From NCBI GenBank assembly GCA_045535375.1, contig JAZSLM010000044.1, positions 1 to 55,958 of the forward strand: 55,958 nt of DNA, given 5' to 3'. The translations under genes were made by a program, and so were the position numbers. Source of the stretch: Eubacteriales bacterium (lineage in GTDB: Bacteria; Bacillota; Clostridia; Oscillospirales; CAG-272). This document shows positions 6,009 to 27,079 of this stretch, in pieces (position 1 is the stretch's first letter; each line of letters begins with the position of its first letter). The notes below the pieces were generated by a model. The model was given only the letters and a program-made list of their open reading frames with translations. It made no database searches and was not told the DNA's origin.

Positions 6009-7310
6009 TTAATTCTTTTTCTTTGTGACTTTGACAATGTAGATCCCTGCGAACAGTGCAATCTCTGCAAAGATAGCGATACCAAGCATAGATATGATCT
6101 CCGATTTTATAGTGTTTGCCGCTCTCATCGCCTCGCGGGTGTAAACGATTATCGGACAGCGATCTTCGGAGTCGGTGTTATACTTAATGCTCGAATACAG
6201 ATTTGAATGAAAATAGTATTCGAGAATTTCGTTCCCGTGCTTGTCTCGCAGAACGACAGAGTTCTTGAAAGGCTCGGGATCGTTCTCGTCGATGATGAGC
6301 GCACTGCCAACTAAATTTCCGTCAGAGTCGTAATACCACTCGCCCGATTCGTTTTTCGTTTCGTCATAGCTTGATTCCATATATTTTTTGAACTCTTCGG
6401 GAGTTTCAAGTACTACCTTGTCGGCAAATGCCGTGGTAGCGATACTCTCAACGACCGCTATTGCAATACCGAGAAGAATGGCGATAACCAAGCTTACCGA
6501 CGAAAGACGAATGAGAAGCTTTCGCGTATATTTTTCACGCGAAAGTCCCACTTCATTAAAAATGAGAATATTCCGACGAATCAGCGCAGGCTTGATAATA
6601 ATGCGGTAGATCAGGTATGCAAGAATGAAGCCTGCGACAGCGAAGGCGATTCCGTACAATAGCCAAGAACTGAATCCAAGACCGAAATTCACACCGTTGA
6701 TGAGCGTGACGAGGGGCAGACAGAACGCGAAGATCGCGATATTTACAAAATAAACAGCTATTGATTTTTGTAAAAACGATGTGTTTGCCTCGTCTATAAG
6801 CTCGCGATAATCGTCATCATCGTTCACTGCGATTTTTGTGTTGGATGTAAAGCAGATCTGGCAGATAGTGCCTGTGAGCAGGAACGCCGATGTAACAAAG
6901 AACGCGATCAATCCCTTCGAGAAGCCGAGGTTGATTATCATTCCAACGATGAGACCGAACAGGGATATTCCGATCGAGATGAGCGTGAGATTGTCGAATT
7001 TTCGCTTCATATTGAAAAGCATAGCCTTGAATTGCTTTTCGCTTTTCTTCTTTTGCTTGATCGCTGCTTCCTCGTTTGGCTGTTCGTATGATTCGCCCGC
7101 GTTTCGCTCCCCTCTCAAAAGCTCATCCGTCGTGATCCCGAAGATCTCCGCAATCGCAGGGATCAGCGAAAGCTCGGGCGCACACTCGTCGCGCTCCCAA
7201 CGGCTGACTGTCTTATCCGAAACGAATAATTTGTCACCGAGTTCCTTTTGTGTCATGCCGTTCGCTTTGCGCAGAACGGCTATAAATTTGCCTATTGTTT
7301 TCTTTTCCAT
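6009..7310 (-). CDS. XRE-family HTH regulator with multiple TM segments
   Basis: IGKFIAVLRK..GMTQKELGDKLFVSDKTVSRWE HTH followed by about six hydrophobic helices. Confidence 0.9.
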   Translation of the reverse strand: MEKKTIGKFIAVLRKANGMTQKELGDKLFVSDKTVSRWERDECAPELSLIPAIAEIFGITTDELLRGERNAGESYEQPNEEAAIKQKKKSEKQFKAMLFNMKRKFDNLTLISIGISLFGLIVGMIINLGFSKGLIAFFVTSAFLLTGTICQICFTSNTKIAVNDDDDYRELIDEANTSFLQKSIAVYFVNIAIFAFCLPLVTLINGVNFGLGFSSWLLYGIAFAVAGFILAYLIYRIIIKPALIRRNILIFNEVGLSREKYTRKLLIRLSSVSLVIAILLGIAIAVVESIATTAFADKVVLETPEEFKKYMESSYDETKNESGEWYYDSDGNLVGSALIIDENDPEPFKNSVVLRDKHGNEILEYYFHSNLYSSIKYNTDSEDRCPIIVYTREAMRAANTIKSEIISMLGIAIFAEIALFAGIYIVKVTKKKN

Positions 7311-7491: not shown

Positions 7492-7520
7492 TTGTAAAAA
7501 AGAGGAATTTATGATATAAT
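7492..7520 (+). promoter_or_regulatory. sigma-A promoter of decarboxylase-like operon
   Basis: TTGTAA-17-TATAAT with extended TG. Confidence 0.7.
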
Positions 7521-7551
7521 TAATTGATTATATAATTTTGGAGATATATCT

Positions 7552-9012
7552 ATGGATAACAACTCTAAAGAAAAGAATAAAAGCCTGCGCCGCGCGATGA
7601 CGGCGGAAAAGCTGACCGAAATGCTTCGCGAGATCGACGTTTCTGCGGCAGTTGAAAGCGAGGGTACTTATACCGCCTCCGCTCGCCTGACTGCACTTTT
7701 CGATCACGGCACTTTCTCGCGTGTCGGCGCGTATATGAACCGCTCGTCCGACCCCGACGAGCCCGCGGGCGTTATTTGCGGCTACGGTGCCGTCGGCGGC
7801 AGACTCGTCTACGCCTTCGCGCAGGACCGTGCGCGAATGAACGGTGCGTTTGATTCGACTTCGGGCAAGCTGATCTGCGATCTTTACTCGATGGCTCTGC
7901 GCAACGGCGCGCCGATCGTCGGTATCTTCGACAGCGACGGCGCGTATATCTACGAGGGCGCAAAAATGCTTGCCGCGCTCGGAAGGACCGTGTCGGCTAA
8001 CAGTTCTGCAGTAGGAATCGTTCCGCGAATCGCGCTCGTTCCCGGCGTTTGCGGCGGTACTCACGCCGTTCTCGCGTCGTCCTTCGACTTCCTTATTTCA
8101 GTAAAGGAATCGACAGAGGTTTACGCAGTATCTCCCTTCGTCAACGGAACGAAAACCTTCCCCGCACCCGAGGGTATTGCCGCTTATGAAGCAGAGGACG
8201 AGGGTGAGCTTTACCGCTTTGCCCGCAATCTGATCGGATTCCTTCCTTCTAATAACACCGAAGGAACTGCCGTCGACCCCGACGTTCCCGAATTTGAGCT
8301 TCAGCGCGCACCCGATCTCCGTTCGCTTTGCGGAGAGGCTTTGATTTCGGAGATGGCGGACAAAAAGAATTACATCCGACTCTTTGCCGAATACGCACCC
8401 GAGGTCGCGGTCGGATTTGCCTCCGTCGGCGGAGTTGGATGCGCTTATATGGCATCCGAACGCACTTATAAAGACGGCTCGCTCACACCCGCAGCGTGTC
8501 GTGTTATAACGAAGATACAGAAGTTCGCCGATGCCTTCGGTCTGCCGATGCTTTCCTTCGTTGATTGCCCCGGATTTGATAATTCGGTCACCGATAATGC
8601 ATTTTATCTCGAAAGTGCGGCGGCGATGATCGATGCGTTTGCATTCTCGTCGAATCCGAAGATAACAACAGTTATCGGCAGGGCGTACGGTCCCGGATTT
8701 ATCTGTATGGCGTCAAAGTCGATCGGCGCTGATATCAGCTTTGCACTCACCGATTCGATAATCAGCGCGCTCTCGCCCGAGGCTTCGGTTGCTTTCCTCT
8801 GGAACGACAAGATCAGAGAGGGTGATCTCACCGCAAGCCGCGAAATGTTTGAGCTTGATTGGCGCGAGAAGCATTCTTCGCCGAACGATGCCGCACTTTG
8901 CGGTGAGATCGACGACATTCTGACCTCCTCCGAGCTCCGCCCGAGGATCGTTTCCGCGCTTTATATGCTCCTCGGCAAGATGCGCTCACAGCCCTCCCGC
9001 CGCAAGAGGTGA
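7552..9012 (+). CDS. acyl-CoA carboxylase/decarboxylase carboxyltransferase-domain protein (divergent)
   Basis: GVICGYG.VGGR.VY.FAQD, FLPSNN, FADAFGLP..SFVDCPGF, PKIT..IGRAYG, G.IDDI. Confidence 0.9.
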   Translation: MDNNSKEKNKSLRRAMTAEKLTEMLREIDVSAAVESEGTYTASARLTALFDHGTFSRVGAYMNRSSDPDEPAGVICGYGAVGGRLVYAFAQDRARMNGAFDSTSGKLICDLYSMALRNGAPIVGIFDSDGAYIYEGAKMLAALGRTVSANSSAVGIVPRIALVPGVCGGTHAVLASSFDFLISVKESTEVYAVSPFVNGTKTFPAPEGIAAYEAEDEGELYRFARNLIGFLPSNNTEGTAVDPDVPEFELQRAPDLRSLCGEALISEMADKKNYIRLFAEYAPEVAVGFASVGGVGCAYMASERTYKDGSLTPAACRVITKIQKFADAFGLPMLSFVDCPGFDNSVTDNAFYLESAAAMIDAFAFSSNPKITTVIGRAYGPGFICMASKSIGADISFALTDSIISALSPEASVAFLWNDKIREGDLTASREMFELDWREKHSSPNDAALCGEIDDILTSSELRPRIVSALYMLLGKMRSQPSRRKR

Positions 9013-9016
9013 CGCG

Positions 9017-9301
9017 ATGTTTATGCTTGAAAGTGCCGTAACTTTACCGAAGGAGGGCATCTTCACTCTCATCGGTATCGCGGTTTTATTGGTATTGTAC
9101 CTCGCTTTGCGATTTGTAAAAAATAAAAAGAAGGAAGCCCTTATCGAGGCAGTCGAAGAAGTCAGCGAGGAAGAGATCGCCGCAATAACAGCGGCTGTGG
9201 CTCTTATCCTCGAAGAGGAAGCCGAAAGTGAAGAGCGCAAGCCCACTCCCTTCCGCGTAATTTCCTTCAAAAAAACAAACAAACGCCGTATAGGAGAATG
9301 A
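9017..9301 (+). CDS. OadG/MmdD-like membrane anchor subunit
   Basis: Single TM, EEIAAITAAV motif, basic C-terminal FRVISFKK; operon position. Confidence 0.75.
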   Translation: MFMLESAVTLPKEGIFTLIGIAVLLVLYLALRFVKNKKKEALIEAVEEVSEEEIAAITAAVALILEEEAESEERKPTPFRVISFKKTNKRRIGE

Positions 9302-9302
9302 T

Positions 9303-9434
9303 ATGAGAAAGTTCAAAGTCAAAGTCAACGGTAAGGAATATGAAGTTGAGATCGAAGAGATCAAGACCGAGGAAAAGACAGAATCCGAAGACAAAGAAAA
9401 TAAAAAAGAAGAAACCGAAAAGACGGATAAATAA
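9303..9434 (+). CDS. 43-aa truncated biotin-carrier-like peptide (N-terminal hairpin only)
   Basis: AGGAG RBS; MRKFKVKVNGKEYEVEIEE matches the N-terminus of MmdC/GcdC-type carriers; no MKM motif; TAA overlaps next ATG; absent from the ORF track. Confidence 0.8.
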   Translation: MRKFKVKVNGKEYEVEIEEIKTEEKTESEDKENKKEETEKTDK

Positions 9435-10495
9435 TGGATAAGTCAAAAAGAGTGCTGAACCTCACGCACCAAGATATCGAGATCTTCGAAAAGAAGGATT
9501 TTGAAGGTTACGCCGCGATAGATGTCACCGAATATTGCTTCGGGGAGCTCGAGGAAGACCCGTGGGACACCATGCGCTTTCTGCGTGCGCTTCTGAGGGA
9601 TTCAAAGCTGAGACTGACCCTCGGCGGTCAGGCTTTGCTCGGATACCGCCACTACCCCGACGAGATCGTTGATGCATTCGTAGCCGCCGCTGTCGATAAC
9701 GGAATAAACGCTTTCAGAATTTTCGACGCGCTGAATGATGCAAGAAATCTCGAAACCGCCGCAGCATCGGTAAAAAAATACGGGGCAGAACTTGAAATAG
9801 GCATTGTCTATGCCGAAAGCCCCGTGCATTCGACTTCTTATTTTGCGGGATACGCTTCGCAGATCGCCGCAATGGGCGCGGATGCGGTATGCATTATCGG
9901 AGTATCGAATGAGTTTGCCTGCCGTGAGCTTACCGAGGCGGTCATAAAAGCCGCCGCGATTCCCACTTCGATTTCCGCAAATTGCGAAAAGATCGCGGAT
10001 ATCGCCCTTGATGCGGGCGCCAAAACCGCCGAGGTCTATAATCTCGATGTTTGCGGCGAAGACATTGCCGAGGAAGTCGAACGGGTCAGAATTGATGCGG
10101 GATATCCTCCAATGGTATATCCGATCTCATTCACCGTCGGAGCCCAGGCAATCAGAAATATTCATTCCGAAAAAAGGTACGAAACCGTGTCGGAAGATTT
10201 CAAGGATCTCATACTCGGCAAATTCGGCAAACTGCCGATGGCAGTATCTCCCGAATTTATAAAAGAAATATGCGGCGAAGAACCGCTTGTGCTTGTTCGC
10301 CCGGCAGATCTTCTTGAACCCGAATACGACCGCATCCGCGAATACACAGCCCCTTGGTTCGAGCAGGAGGAGGATATCCTCACCTACGCTCTTTACCGCG
10401 GCGTCGCGATAGTCTTTTTCGAAAAGAGAAAAGCAAAAAAATACGCGCTCGATATGCCTCACGCGCACAAGGAACGCGGAATTCATACTGTATAA
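9434..10495 (+). CDS. oxaloacetate decarboxylase alpha / transcarboxylase 5S-like protein, catalytically degenerate
   Basis: EDPW, LGYRHY.D, RIFDALND, SPVH, GYPP, VG.QA, RPADLLEPE, EEDILTYAL retained; active-site motifs absent. Confidence 0.85.
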   Translation: MDKSKRVLNLTHQDIEIFEKKDFEGYAAIDVTEYCFGELEEDPWDTMRFLRALLRDSKLRLTLGGQALLGYRHYPDEIVDAFVAAAVDNGINAFRIFDALNDARNLETAAASVKKYGAELEIGIVYAESPVHSTSYFAGYASQIAAMGADAVCIIGVSNEFACRELTEAVIKAAAIPTSISANCEKIADIALDAGAKTAEVYNLDVCGEDIAEEVERVRIDAGYPPMVYPISFTVGAQAIRNIHSEKRYETVSEDFKDLILGKFGKLPMAVSPEFIKEICGEEPLVLVRPADLLEPEYDRIREYTAPWFEQEEDILTYALYRGVAIVFFEKRKAKKYALDMPHAHKERGIHTV

Positions 10496-10530
10496 AAAAT
10501 AACGGAAAGCCTAGCTTTCCGTTATTTTTT
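10494..10530. terminator. bidirectional terminator
   Basis: AAAAATAACGGAAAGC/GCTTTCCGTTATTTTT. Confidence 0.85.
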
Positions 10531-10974
10531 ATTCTCTTTCTCCGCAAATCCCGCAATATAAACCTCGAATCTGTGCGAACAGCAAGGACAGCAAACCTTA
10601 TGCTTGCCCGGTTTTTTAGGCAGACGGAGCACGTTCTTGCATTTTTTGCATCGGCGGTAAACGTGAGTTTTTCTGTCGCGGATGCGGTCGCGCTGGAGTC
10701 GGAAAAATCCCGTGAAATTCTTTGCGAATCGAAGAAAATCAGCGTTCTCTTTACGCCGTTTATATAGATTTTTTGAGAGATATCTGAAAAGCGCCCAGGA
10801 TATCAGCGCAATATAGATTGCGTTGACGATAAGCTTCGGTATGCCTTGCAGAAACAGCGCGATAATGATAAGGAACAGACAAATGATCAGCAAAAAGTTA
10901 TAAAGCGCGTCAACGCCGTTGCGCCCTTGCATGAAGCGCCAGACACGCTCGCGGAATGGAGTTTTGTTTTTCAT
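10522..10974 (-). CDS. membrane protein with C-terminal zinc ribbon
   Basis: RFMQGRNGVD, 2 TM, SKN..KR..EN, CxxC..LRLP...CxxC; GGAGG RBS before ATG 10974. Confidence 0.8.
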   Translation of the reverse strand: MKNKTPFRERVWRFMQGRNGVDALYNFLLIICLFLIIIALFLQGIPKLIVNAIYIALISWALFRYLSKNLYKRRKENADFLRFAKNFTGFFRLQRDRIRDRKTHVYRRCKKCKNVLRLPKKPGKHKVCCPCCSHRFEVYIAGFAEKENKK

Positions 10975-11031
10975 TTTTATCCTCCGGGGAATGCGCAGGG
11001 GACGACTCAAAGCCGTCCCCATAATTGATAA

Positions 11032-11565
11032 TTACTTCTTGAGAGAATCGCGGATCTCAGCGAGAAGCGCGGTCTGCTGTACGAGAGATGCACGGAATGC
11101 AGCCTCTTCTTCAGCCTTTGCCTTTGCAGCTTCAGCATCAGCGGCAGCCTTTTCCTCTGCAGCCTTAGCAGCAGCGGCATCTGCTTCTGCCTTTGCGAGA
11201 GCTTCCTTCTCGTTTGCCTTGTCGCGGATCTTGTTGATCATTCTGACAACGCAGAAGATGCAGAACGCGATGATGAGGAAGTCGATGATGGTCTGGAGCC
11301 AAGTACCCCAAAGGATAGCAACCTCTGCGGTTACAACTTCACCCGCTTCATTGAGCTCTTCGGGAGTGATGATAGTCTTGATCGAATCAAGGCTGCCGCT
11401 CTTGAGGAAGATACCGACGAAGGGGTTGATGATGTAGTTGACAAAACCGGTTACGATCTTGCTGAACGCGCCGCCGACAACAACGCCGACTGCCATATCC
11501 ACCACGTTACCGCGGGAGATGAATTTTTTGAAATCCGCACCAAAGGTGCTCTTTTTCTTTGCCAT
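11032..11565 (-). CDS. mscL: large-conductance mechanosensitive channel
   Basis: FKKFISRGNVVDMAVGVVVGGAF, IIDFLIIA, LLAEIRDSL; GGAGG RBS. Confidence 0.95.
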   Translation of the reverse strand: MAKKKSTFGADFKKFISRGNVVDMAVGVVVGGAFSKIVTGFVNYIINPFVGIFLKSGSLDSIKTIITPEELNEAGEVVTAEVAILWGTWLQTIIDFLIIAFCIFCVVRMINKIRDKANEKEALAKAEADAAAAKAAEEKAAADAEAAKAKAEEEAAFRASLVQQTALLAEIRDSLKK

Positions 11566-11601
11566 AATAATACCTCCGGCATAAAACAATAGTATGATAT
11601 A

Positions 11602-26356: not shown

Positions 26357-27079
26357 ATGGAAATATTCAGATTTGAAACTATAGATTCGACCTTCGTTGA
26401 AGCGGGCAGAAGGATGAACGAGCTATCCGACGGCGCGTATCTCTTCACCGCACGCGAACAGACAGCGGGCAGAGGACAGGGTACTCACAACTTCTATTCG
26501 CCCAAGGATAACGGCATTTATGCCACGCTGCTTCTTGTGGGCGAATATGCAGACGTTTGTATGCCGGCTTTTTCAGCCAAGCTCGGTCCCTTTGCAACGA
26601 CGACGATCACGAATGCCGTTCTCGATGCTTGCTCTGATTTCGATCAGCGCCTCGGCATAAAGTGGCTCAACGACCTCCAACTCGACGGCAAAAAATACGG
26701 AGGAGTCATCACAGCCGTCACCGTAAAGCAAGGCAAGCTTACGACGATCAGAATCGGATTCGGCATCAACACAGGATATGCCGATATGCCCGATGAGCTT
26801 CGCGGCAGAGTGACGACTCTCGGTCTTGATCCCGAGGATACCGAAAAGCTTATGATCGAGATCTCGGATAGACTCTGCAACCATCTTCCCGAAGTAAAGG
26901 AAGAGGAACTTTACAATGAATACGTCAGGTATTGCACCACGCCGGGCAGAAATATAATGCTTCCCGACGGCAGATGCGCCACGGCAATCAGCATTGCTTC
27001 GGATTTCTCACTTATCTACTCCGTCGAGGGCAAGCGCCCCGAATTTACCAATACGACAGCAGGTCTTATAATCCTCTGA
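26357..27079 (+). CDS. birA: biotin-protein ligase (no HTH domain)
   Basis: IDST, QTAGRG, F.SP, IKWLND, GKK.GG, IGFGIN. Confidence 0.85.
   Translation: MEIFRFETIDSTFVEAGRRMNELSDGAYLFTAREQTAGRGQGTHNFYSPKDNGIYATLLLVGEYADVCMPAFSAKLGPFATTTITNAVLDACSDFDQRLGIKWLNDLQLDGKKYGGVITAVTVKQGKLTTIRIGFGINTGYADMPDELRGRVTTLGLDPEDTEKLMIEISDRLCNHLPEVKEEELYNEYVRYCTTPGRNIMLPDGRCATAISIASDFSLIYSVEGKRPEFTNTTAGLIIL

Follow-up and report, generated by a model that had tools for sequence, protein, structure and literature searches.

What does a decarboxylase operon do once its biotin carrier and its ion pump are gone? The question is raised by four plus-strand genes at positions 7552–10495 of a 55,958-nucleotide stretch of contig JAZSLM010000044.1, from a Eubacteriales bacterium of the Oscillospirales lineage CAG-272 (assembly GCA_045535375.1); this whole stretch is referred to below as the window. 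In Na+-translocating decarboxylases as they are described, carboxyltransferase, biotin carrier and pump form an obligate assembly. A sequence-only reading of the window had taken the genes for an operon of this kind from which all chemistry had been removed. As judged by gene content and homology, the operon derives from Na+-translocating decarboxylases, without their carrier or pump and with one subunit that is now a pseudoenzyme. Its present job is probably a new one for which biotin is not required, and the operon is kept by selection in many species of gut Clostridia.

The first gene (7552–9012) matches Carboxyl_trans and encodes a carboxyltransferase (CT) subunit of 486 amino acids (aa) from a divergent MmdA/PccB-like subfamily. 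It is followed by a gene for a 94-aa anchor subunit resembling OadG, OadH and GcdD (9017–9301), assigned by homology to the anchors of intact operons, and by one for a stand-alone peptide of 43 aa (9303–9434). The peptide, recognised by the biotin carboxyl carrier protein (BCCP) and MmdC models, comprises the N-terminal anchor segment of a carrier and a Glu/Lys-rich tail. The last gene (9434–10495) encodes a 353-aa OadA/5S-like subunit, which matches PYC_OADA, has lost catalytic residues and is called the relic below. The four open reading frames (ORFs) are packed tightly and free of internal stops, with spacers of 4 nt between CT and anchor and 1 nt between anchor and peptide, and an overlapping TAATG between peptide and relic. 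Their coordinates and spacing bear out the description of four closely spaced open frames with neither stops nor frameshifts.

The origin of this arrangement can be read from a sister species (G018), where the operon has five genes: CT, an anchor of 129 aa, a BCCP of 133 aa with an EAMKM motif, an OadB of 396 aa (485 bits to Na_pump_decarbB) and an OadA of 472 aa (774 bits, over the NCBIfam OadA cut-off). Six loci of canonical length were fetched in all (G018, G023, G007, G008, G030 and, in part, G009), comprising CT, an anchor of 117–130 aa, a BCCP of 121–138 aa with EAMKM, an OadB of 396–402 aa and an OadA of 468–502 aa. Because the gene order 3' of the operon (zinc-ribbon protein, MscL, and further on an ABC transporter and a biotin-ligase homologue) is common to the window and the intact G018 locus, we regard the window operon as an in-place descendant of a five-gene operon. 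On this comparison, the ancestor consisted of CT, anchor, BCCP, OadB and OadA.

Matches to the fourth ORF were scored in 38 species genomes of the genus. Thirteen have frames of 350–368 aa, each a single full-length match at 45–100% identity (the short form, to which the window belongs), eight have frames of 396–436 aa, 12 are canonical at 467–554 aa, one is partial and four have none. In the wider family, an OadA homologue was found in 121 of 151 sampled genomes from 97 genera. Outside the genus, among the matches listed (75 further rows stand apart from these), the OadA frames measure 464–628 aa except for one of 313 aa, which begins 345 bases from a contig end. Besides the window we fetched 11 short-form loci; all have open frames and 10 carry CT, anchor, peptide and relic in this order. 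The same losses thus recur in orthologous four-gene operons of further genomes, with the peptide gene missing in one of them (G011). The eight genomes with the longer relics hold a second reduced form, made up of a CT of 497–510 aa, an anchor, a peptide of about 50–65 aa without a biotinyl domain and a relic of 393–413 aa. Its peptide carries the same N-terminal motif as that of the short form. Its relic also lacks RD..HQS, the Lys of KDMAG and HxH, with deletion boundaries that differ from those of the short form.

The OadA-like subunit is, on alignment, the only demonstrable pseudoenzyme in the operon. It matches PYC_OADA only (82 bits), with no match to the HMGL-like Pfam family, and its OadA score of 268 bits stays below the cut-off of 718; its best relatives of solved structure are PC-beta/5S. 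In the ESM Atlas, a search with a relic homologue returned only ordinary OadA clusters. We aligned 11 short forms with six OadA proteins of full operons, four from the same genus and two from outgroups. In the short forms, the segment with RD..HQS has been either deleted or replaced, KDMAG has lost its Lys, HxH has gone with a deleted segment, and barrel and funnel are shorter by about 90 residues after strand 6. These elements are absent from 11/11 short forms and present in 6/6 full-operon proteins, and the earlier claim that the OadA/5S catalytic motifs are lost is thereby upheld. The Arg of RGQ is changed to Gly, Ala or Ser. The relic retains the sequence of the first six strands and, at its C-terminal end, the PYC_OADA domain and a conserved tail. 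Since the metal ligands and catalytic Lys are lost while the ratio of non-synonymous to synonymous change (dN/dS, by Nei–Gojobori) is 0.07–0.22 in the short form and 0.17–0.33 in the second form, the relic combines loss of catalytic residues with purifying selection and in this respect qualifies as a pseudoenzyme.

The two small proteins appear to preserve the linking parts of the parent enzyme. Pfam- and NCBIfam-type profile searches gave no significant family match for the window anchor itself. It is 32–40% identical to the anchors of four intact operons of the same genus, of which the G018 anchor just reaches the oadG_fam cut-off (36.4 versus 36.05 bits), and 32% identical to the anchor of a second, complete operon in the short-form genome G036. 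Hydropathy predicts a single transmembrane helix at residues 15–33 (mean hydropathy 2.47), which is accompanied by an acidic helix and, at the C-terminal end, by a conserved FRV..F segment in which F79, R80 and F84 are invariant. The window ORF thus has both the helix at the N-terminus and the association segment at the C-terminus that mark the small anchors of Na+-translocating decarboxylases. The 43-aa peptide matches positions 2–31 of the BCCP model and 1–24 of the MmdC model, so that cover of the carrier models extends over positions 1–31 only. It aligns to the N-terminus of the intact-operon carriers, which continue into the EAMKM domain; the carrier has thus been truncated after its linker, leaving the N-terminal hairpin-like segment followed by a Glu/Lys tail. 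The first 21 residues are the same in seven of 10 orthologues, with a difference at one position in the remaining three, and within these 21 codons 14 columns vary synonymously only, compared with one column that changes the amino acid. Profile matches, hydropathy helix and gene overlap agree with the sequence-only reading that the carrier's N-terminal peptide, the membrane anchor and the TAATG coupling survive. A three-gene variant occurs in G011 (locus L033, G011:C17), where the peptide gene is absent, the relic has an N-terminal extension (368 aa) and the anchor lacks the acidic helix and carries a Glu/Lys-rich C-terminal extension.

The same reading held that the biotinyl domain and OadB are absent, and a search of whole genomes confirmed this at the level of the group. 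The window genome is a metagenome-assembled genome (MAG) of 71% completeness and the short-form genomes are MAGs of 71–97% completeness; any absence from a single genome is weak evidence, and the weight is carried by the pattern across them. In the 71%-complete window genome OadB (PF03977) has no match, and the sole Biotin_lipoyl match is an E2 lipoyl protein rather than a biotinyl carrier with the MKM lysine. Neither OadB nor a biotinyl domain (PF00364) was found in 12 of the 13 short-form genomes. The exception is G036, which has OadB and a BCCP-sized biotinyl protein within its second complete operon. OadB was found in all five control genomes with an intact operon, and in none of the eight second-form genomes, which also gave no BCCP (0/8) and no biotin ligase (0/8). 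A profile built from the genus's own carriers found only the peptide and E2 lipoyl domains in the five short-form genomes searched with it. Candidates for a hidden carrier were rejected: weak Biotin_lipoyl matches in four genomes are RnfC-like proteins, and the frame of 121 aa seen in G026 belongs to an E2 lipoyl domain truncated where its contig ends. The second operon of G036 (L039, G036:C14) has five genes and is distantly related, with a CT only 35% identical to that of the window and, as its nearest fetched relative, an operon from another family of the order. Because none of the three defining decarboxylase features tested (the OadA active site with RD..HQS, KDMAG and HxH; OadB; a biotinyl domain) was found, we do not consider the window operon to be a functional member of the decarboxylase family.

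The CT gives a different picture. It aligns to Carboxyl_trans (PF01039) with 193.5 bits over profile positions 3–490 of 493, covering both domains of the fold, and its best relatives of solved structure are PCC-beta and 12S (E about 1e-54). Its best NCBIfam match is MmdA (TIGR01117) at 226 bits, against a cut-off of 998.8, and the CT of the intact G018 operon reaches only 228.5 bits with the same model. Membership of the malonate decarboxylase equivalogs was not supported, with 20.6 bits to TIGR03133 (cut-off 278) and 13.8 bits to TIGR03134 (cut-off 237). We defined 119 conserved columns as those in which at least six of seven CTs from complete operons agree; the short form keeps 104 of these and the second form 90, and changes fixed within the clade affect only 13 CT columns, most of them conservatively. 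An excerpt of a preprint (bioRxiv 10.64898/2026.02.06.704326) describes two glycine-based oxyanion holes in acyl-CoA carboxyltransferases, one for the substrate enolate and one for carboxybiotin. In an alignment to PCC-beta, where the register is inferred, hole 1 of the window CT reads G-T, with a first Gly that is nearly invariant in the subfamily, and hole 2 reads P-G; the first position of hole 2 is Pro or Val in the short form, Ile or Met in the second form and Pro or Ala in intact operons. The motifs that deviate from PCC-beta in the solved-structure alignment are common to the CTs of intact operons. Because they occur in CTs encoded beside an intact BCCP, OadB and OadA, the atypical motifs did not arise through the loss. 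To judge from these comparisons, the CT of the window operon is undegraded and scores like the CT of an intact operon; the claim that catalytic motifs had been lost needs to be narrowed, since on this evidence it does not extend to this subunit.

We compared rates of change among the operon genes, taking medians over pairs with 0.05<dS<2. Ranges of dN/dS relative to the window, with the pairwise medians in parentheses, were 0.05–0.14 for CT (median 0.084, 45/55 pairs), 0.07–0.22 for the relic (median 0.119, 15/55 pairs), 0.14–0.20 for the anchor (median 0.176, 20/55 pairs) and 0.13–0.19 for the peptide (median 0.137, 18/45 pairs), with dS near saturation for many pairs. CT is therefore the most constrained and slowest evolving of the operon genes. 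In the second form the values are 0.075–0.17 for CT, 0.17–0.33 for the relic and 0.15–0.33 for the anchor. The short-form operon is under purifying selection and is not in random decay. With values of 0.05–0.22 across all four genes, well below 1, the proposal of a clean, repurposed derivative rather than a decaying one is sustained.

Phylogeny suggests that the operon has been reduced more than once. In the CT tree the 12 short-form CTs form one clade (97/95), sister to the intact G018 (100/99) and nested inside a clade of intact operons (98/98). The second form is another clade (100/97), and intact operons separate it from the short form. We consider two independent reductions likely because of this separation. 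Constraining both reduced forms to a single CT clade was rejected (55.9 log-likelihood units worse; approximately unbiased (AU) test, p 0.00014), for a group that was defined only after the tree had been seen. The OadA tree, in which short-form, second-form and functional proteins radiate as a three-way star, neither supports nor refutes two origins. Some short-form loci are mosaic (L024, L030–L032): the CTs of G029, G034 and G001 are 87–89% identical to that of the window, their anchors and relics only 44–49% and their peptides about 70%, and G025 combines a G029-type anchor with a window-type relic. These identities suggest recombination inside the operon.

The signals that flank the genes were assessed separately. 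A sigma-70-like promoter candidate lies upstream of CT at 7492–7520 on the plus strand (TTGTAA, 17 nt, TATAAT, with a TG extension; 10/12 matches). Two sigma-70-like sites were observed in the operon region compared with 2.7 expected from shuffled sequence, so that this promoter is plausible and has no statistical support. At 10492–10532 on the plus strand a 19-pair stem followed by a T-run makes a strong terminator candidate which, unlike the promoter, is convincing individually; of the promoter and terminator noted earlier, it is thus the terminator that holds up. A 433-aa XRE-type helix-turn-helix protein with membrane segments is encoded divergently from the operon at 6009–7310 (minus strand). 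Among the fetched loci, homologues of it (40–85% identity) adjoin nine of the 11 other short-form operons and none of the operons of intact or second form, and it is a possible regulator of the operon. Directly 3' of the operon, a 166-aa zinc-ribbon membrane protein and the 185-aa MscL are encoded on the minus strand at 10522–11589, in synteny with G018.

With moderate confidence, we favour the view that the operon encodes a reduced, membrane-tethered, biotin-independent complex in which CT would be the working part, scaffolded by the anchor, the peptide and the dead OadA. Pump, biotinyl domain and the active site of OadA would have disappeared from a five-gene Na+-translocating decarboxylase, which would have kept its undamaged CT alongside the pieces that hold the soluble head on the membrane stalk, namely the anchor, the first 30 or so carrier residues, and the body of OadA together with its C-terminal tail. 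In the part of PMC7145394 that concerns these links, the N-terminal ~30 residues of the carrier are the anchor and the small subunit connects the head to the membrane part through its C-terminal region; a passage of PMC7274780 reports that deleting the C-terminal tail of gamma releases the alpha subunit. Because the retained pieces are the linking pieces of the parent enzymes, the complex may, by homology, still assemble and stay tethered to the membrane. Its function probably lies in CT, because CT alone keeps both its conserved core and the tightest constraint. CT might act on or hold an acyl-CoA-type thioester without biotin, and the simplest chemistry would be plain decarboxylation through the thioester oxyanion hole, as in MdcD-MdcE. 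According to an excerpt of PMC5534430 these CT homologues decarboxylate a malonyl thioester without biotin, use one main-chain oxyanion hole and accept malonyl-CoA; the resemblance bears on the proposed mechanism only. The dead OadA, peptide and anchor would then be retained as obligatory structural partners. That the arrangement can work without biotinylation machinery is suggested by the second form, because it retains the four parts in genomes where neither ligase nor BCCP was found. A bolder version, which we hold only tentatively, is that two lineages were independently stripped to the same four parts, with a CT head whose own biotin-independent activity (thioester decarboxylation or an undescribed reaction) needs the stalk and the dead OadA as a chassis, and that the orphan ligase of the short form serves an unrecognised acceptor or has another function.

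Several observations weigh against a biotin-independent CT complex as just described. The evidence for assembly and tethering is homology to the parent enzymes, the peptide is not indispensable since one short-form genome (G011) does without its gene, and the dN/dS values carry the near-saturation of dS. For two separate origins, the choice of the AU group after the fact and the star-like OadA tree are further reservations. Even where the operon is intact, the CT subfamily does not follow PCC-beta in conserved motifs, and because these include the position of the carboxybiotin hole the CT might never have been an ordinary carboxyltransferase. A substrate is not evident from the metabolism encoded by the genus. 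Methylmalonyl-CoA from a succinate pathway was set aside, as methylmalonyl-CoA mutase had no match in 20 genomes of the genus; a supply of malonyl-CoA for fatty-acid synthesis was likewise set aside, with AccC and an FabF-type ketoacyl synthase over cut-off in 0/20. The genus thus seems to be without fatty-acid synthesis and, apart from this complex, without biotin enzymes. Biotin supply did not discriminate between the forms, since the 20 genomes gave no BioY match and no BioB over cut-off whether their operon was intact or reduced.

The biotin ligase is a further point against it. A BirA-type homologue of 240 aa is encoded in the window at 26357–27079 (plus strand), 7 nt 3' of a co-oriented ABC-transporter permease gene, and scores 68.6 bits to birA_ligase, below the cut-off of 83.1. 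It is present in 13/13 short-form genomes, at 78–94% identity to the window protein in the 11 compared, with a dN/dS of 0.02–0.09 over 12 sequences. A retained ligase fits poorly with a fully biotin-free state in the short-form species. We considered whether this protein might be a lipoylating enzyme and rejected the idea, as a true LplA adjoins the E2 cluster in the three genomes where it was found (G000, G005 and G029). The cluster encodes E1-alpha, E1-beta and E2 of a 2-oxoacid dehydrogenase (L001, G000:C10:23489-26707; adjacent LplA at G000:C10:21864-22724). An E2-sized lipoyl protein occurs in 12 of 13 short-form and four of eight second-form genomes, and was not found in the intact-operon genomes G018, G007, G023 and G008.

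Because this ligase is conserved without a recognisable acceptor, the reading that biotin is still used in the short-form lineage stays alive. CT would then work with free biotin or with an acceptor that is unrecognised or encoded in trans, which would explain why the ligase is kept; lipoylation does not account for the ligase, and G036 does possess a BCCP in its second operon. We nevertheless regard continued biotin dependence as improbable: no biotinyl domain was seen with PF00364 in the remaining 12 short-form genomes, or with the genus carrier profile in the five searched; the second form has the same four-part operon with ligase and BCCP at 0/8; and OadB, the would-be user of carboxybiotin, is absent. 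That the operon is instead a recently broken relic, heading for loss and still open by chance, is close to refuted and has very little left to commend it. The relic does change faster than functional OadA (median non-synonymous divergence, pN, 0.34 versus 0.13), although the order is reversed for CT (0.10 versus 0.29) in samples that differ in depth, and one genome has lost the peptide gene. Such decay is hard to reconcile with frames that stay open in 12 short-form and eight second-form loci at protein identities down to about 31–45%, with a dN/dS of 0.05–0.33 in every gene, or with peptide codons of which 14 among the first 21 vary synonymously only.

A more serious competitor follows the earlier proposal that the whole complex is non-catalytic, the four proteins being tethered to the membrane and together binding, sensing or scaffolding a CoA ester or keto acid. 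In favour of this, the OadA relic is beyond doubt dead, the CT motifs are atypical relative to PCC-beta both at the carboxybiotin oxyanion hole and at other places, the searches revealed no metabolic source of, or sink for, malonyl- or methylmalonyl-CoA, and the XRE-type membrane regulator stands beside most of the short-form operons. Within the operon, however, CT is under the tightest constraint, and of the 119 columns defined on complete operons it retains 104. Its atypical motifs also occur where BCCP, OadB and OadA are intact, and profile searches found no DNA-binding or signalling domain in the four proteins. With an MmdA score of 226 compared with 228.5 bits for its intact counterpart, CT gives little reason to extend the loss of catalysis to the complex as a whole. 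The sensor or scaffold idea is a live rival, possible if rather doubtful, and is not the best-supported reading; that remains a biotin-independent complex with CT as its working part.

At issue is a remnant of head and stalk, without carrier or pump at its locus, that is under selection in 21 of 38 species genomes of one genus. If CT is active, the operon would illustrate a natural route by which a carboxyltransferase that depends on biotin gives rise to an enzyme that does not, a pseudoenzyme being its obligate partner. If CT is inactive, the operon would be a rare example of an entire multi-subunit enzyme head reused as a membrane complex without catalysis. In both cases, it offers a defined system for probing the contacts that hold these still structurally unresolved complexes together. 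There is also a practical side. The source annotation names the CT a 'carboxyl transferase domain-containing protein' or hypothetical, and the relic a 'hypothetical protein', 'pyruvate/oxaloacetate carboxyltransferase' or 'oxaloacetate decarboxylase alpha subunit'; annotation as an oxaloacetate decarboxylase or pyruvate carboxyltransferase leads to mis-predicted metabolism in these gut bacteria.

The open-access literature that we searched gave no description of such a reduced complex or of the pseudoenzyme form. Among the closest known systems, the malonate decarboxylase pair MdcD-MdcE, in the account given in part of PMC5534430, is a CT fold that works without biotin by means of a main-chain oxyanion hole, and so provides the precedent for the proposed mechanism; the window CT resembles it at the family level only (20.6 bits against the cut-off of 278), and no ACP-type partner (acyl carrier protein) is seen in the operon. 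The oxaloacetate decarboxylase (OAD) Na+ pumps (OadA, OadB, OadD and OadH in Enterococcus faecalis; OadA-B-G in Vibrio and Salmonella), whose subunit roles are treated in sections of PMC6193673 and PMC7274780, share with the window operon a homologous OadA-type body, a single-helix anchor and the tie formed by the carrier N-terminus. The window operon differs from them in having no OadB, no biotinyl domain and an OadA without metal ligands or catalytic Lys, and in carrying an extra MmdA-like CT subunit that is absent from described OAD pumps. The GcdABCD and MmdABCDE pumps likewise have a separate acyl-CoA-type CT alpha subunit, a small anchor and a carrier with an N-terminal anchor region of about 30 residues, as set out in part of PMC7145394. 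The window operon lacks their beta pump and biotin, and its CT is not an MmdA orthologue because it scores 226 bits where 998.8 are needed. The transcarboxylase of Propionibacterium, built from 12S, 5S and 1.3S, likewise joins a PccB/12S-type CT to a 5S-type subunit. There the N-terminus of 1.3S glues 12S to 5S. The window operon, by comparison, has a membrane anchor, a dead 5S-like subunit and, of the carrier, only the N-terminal peptide.

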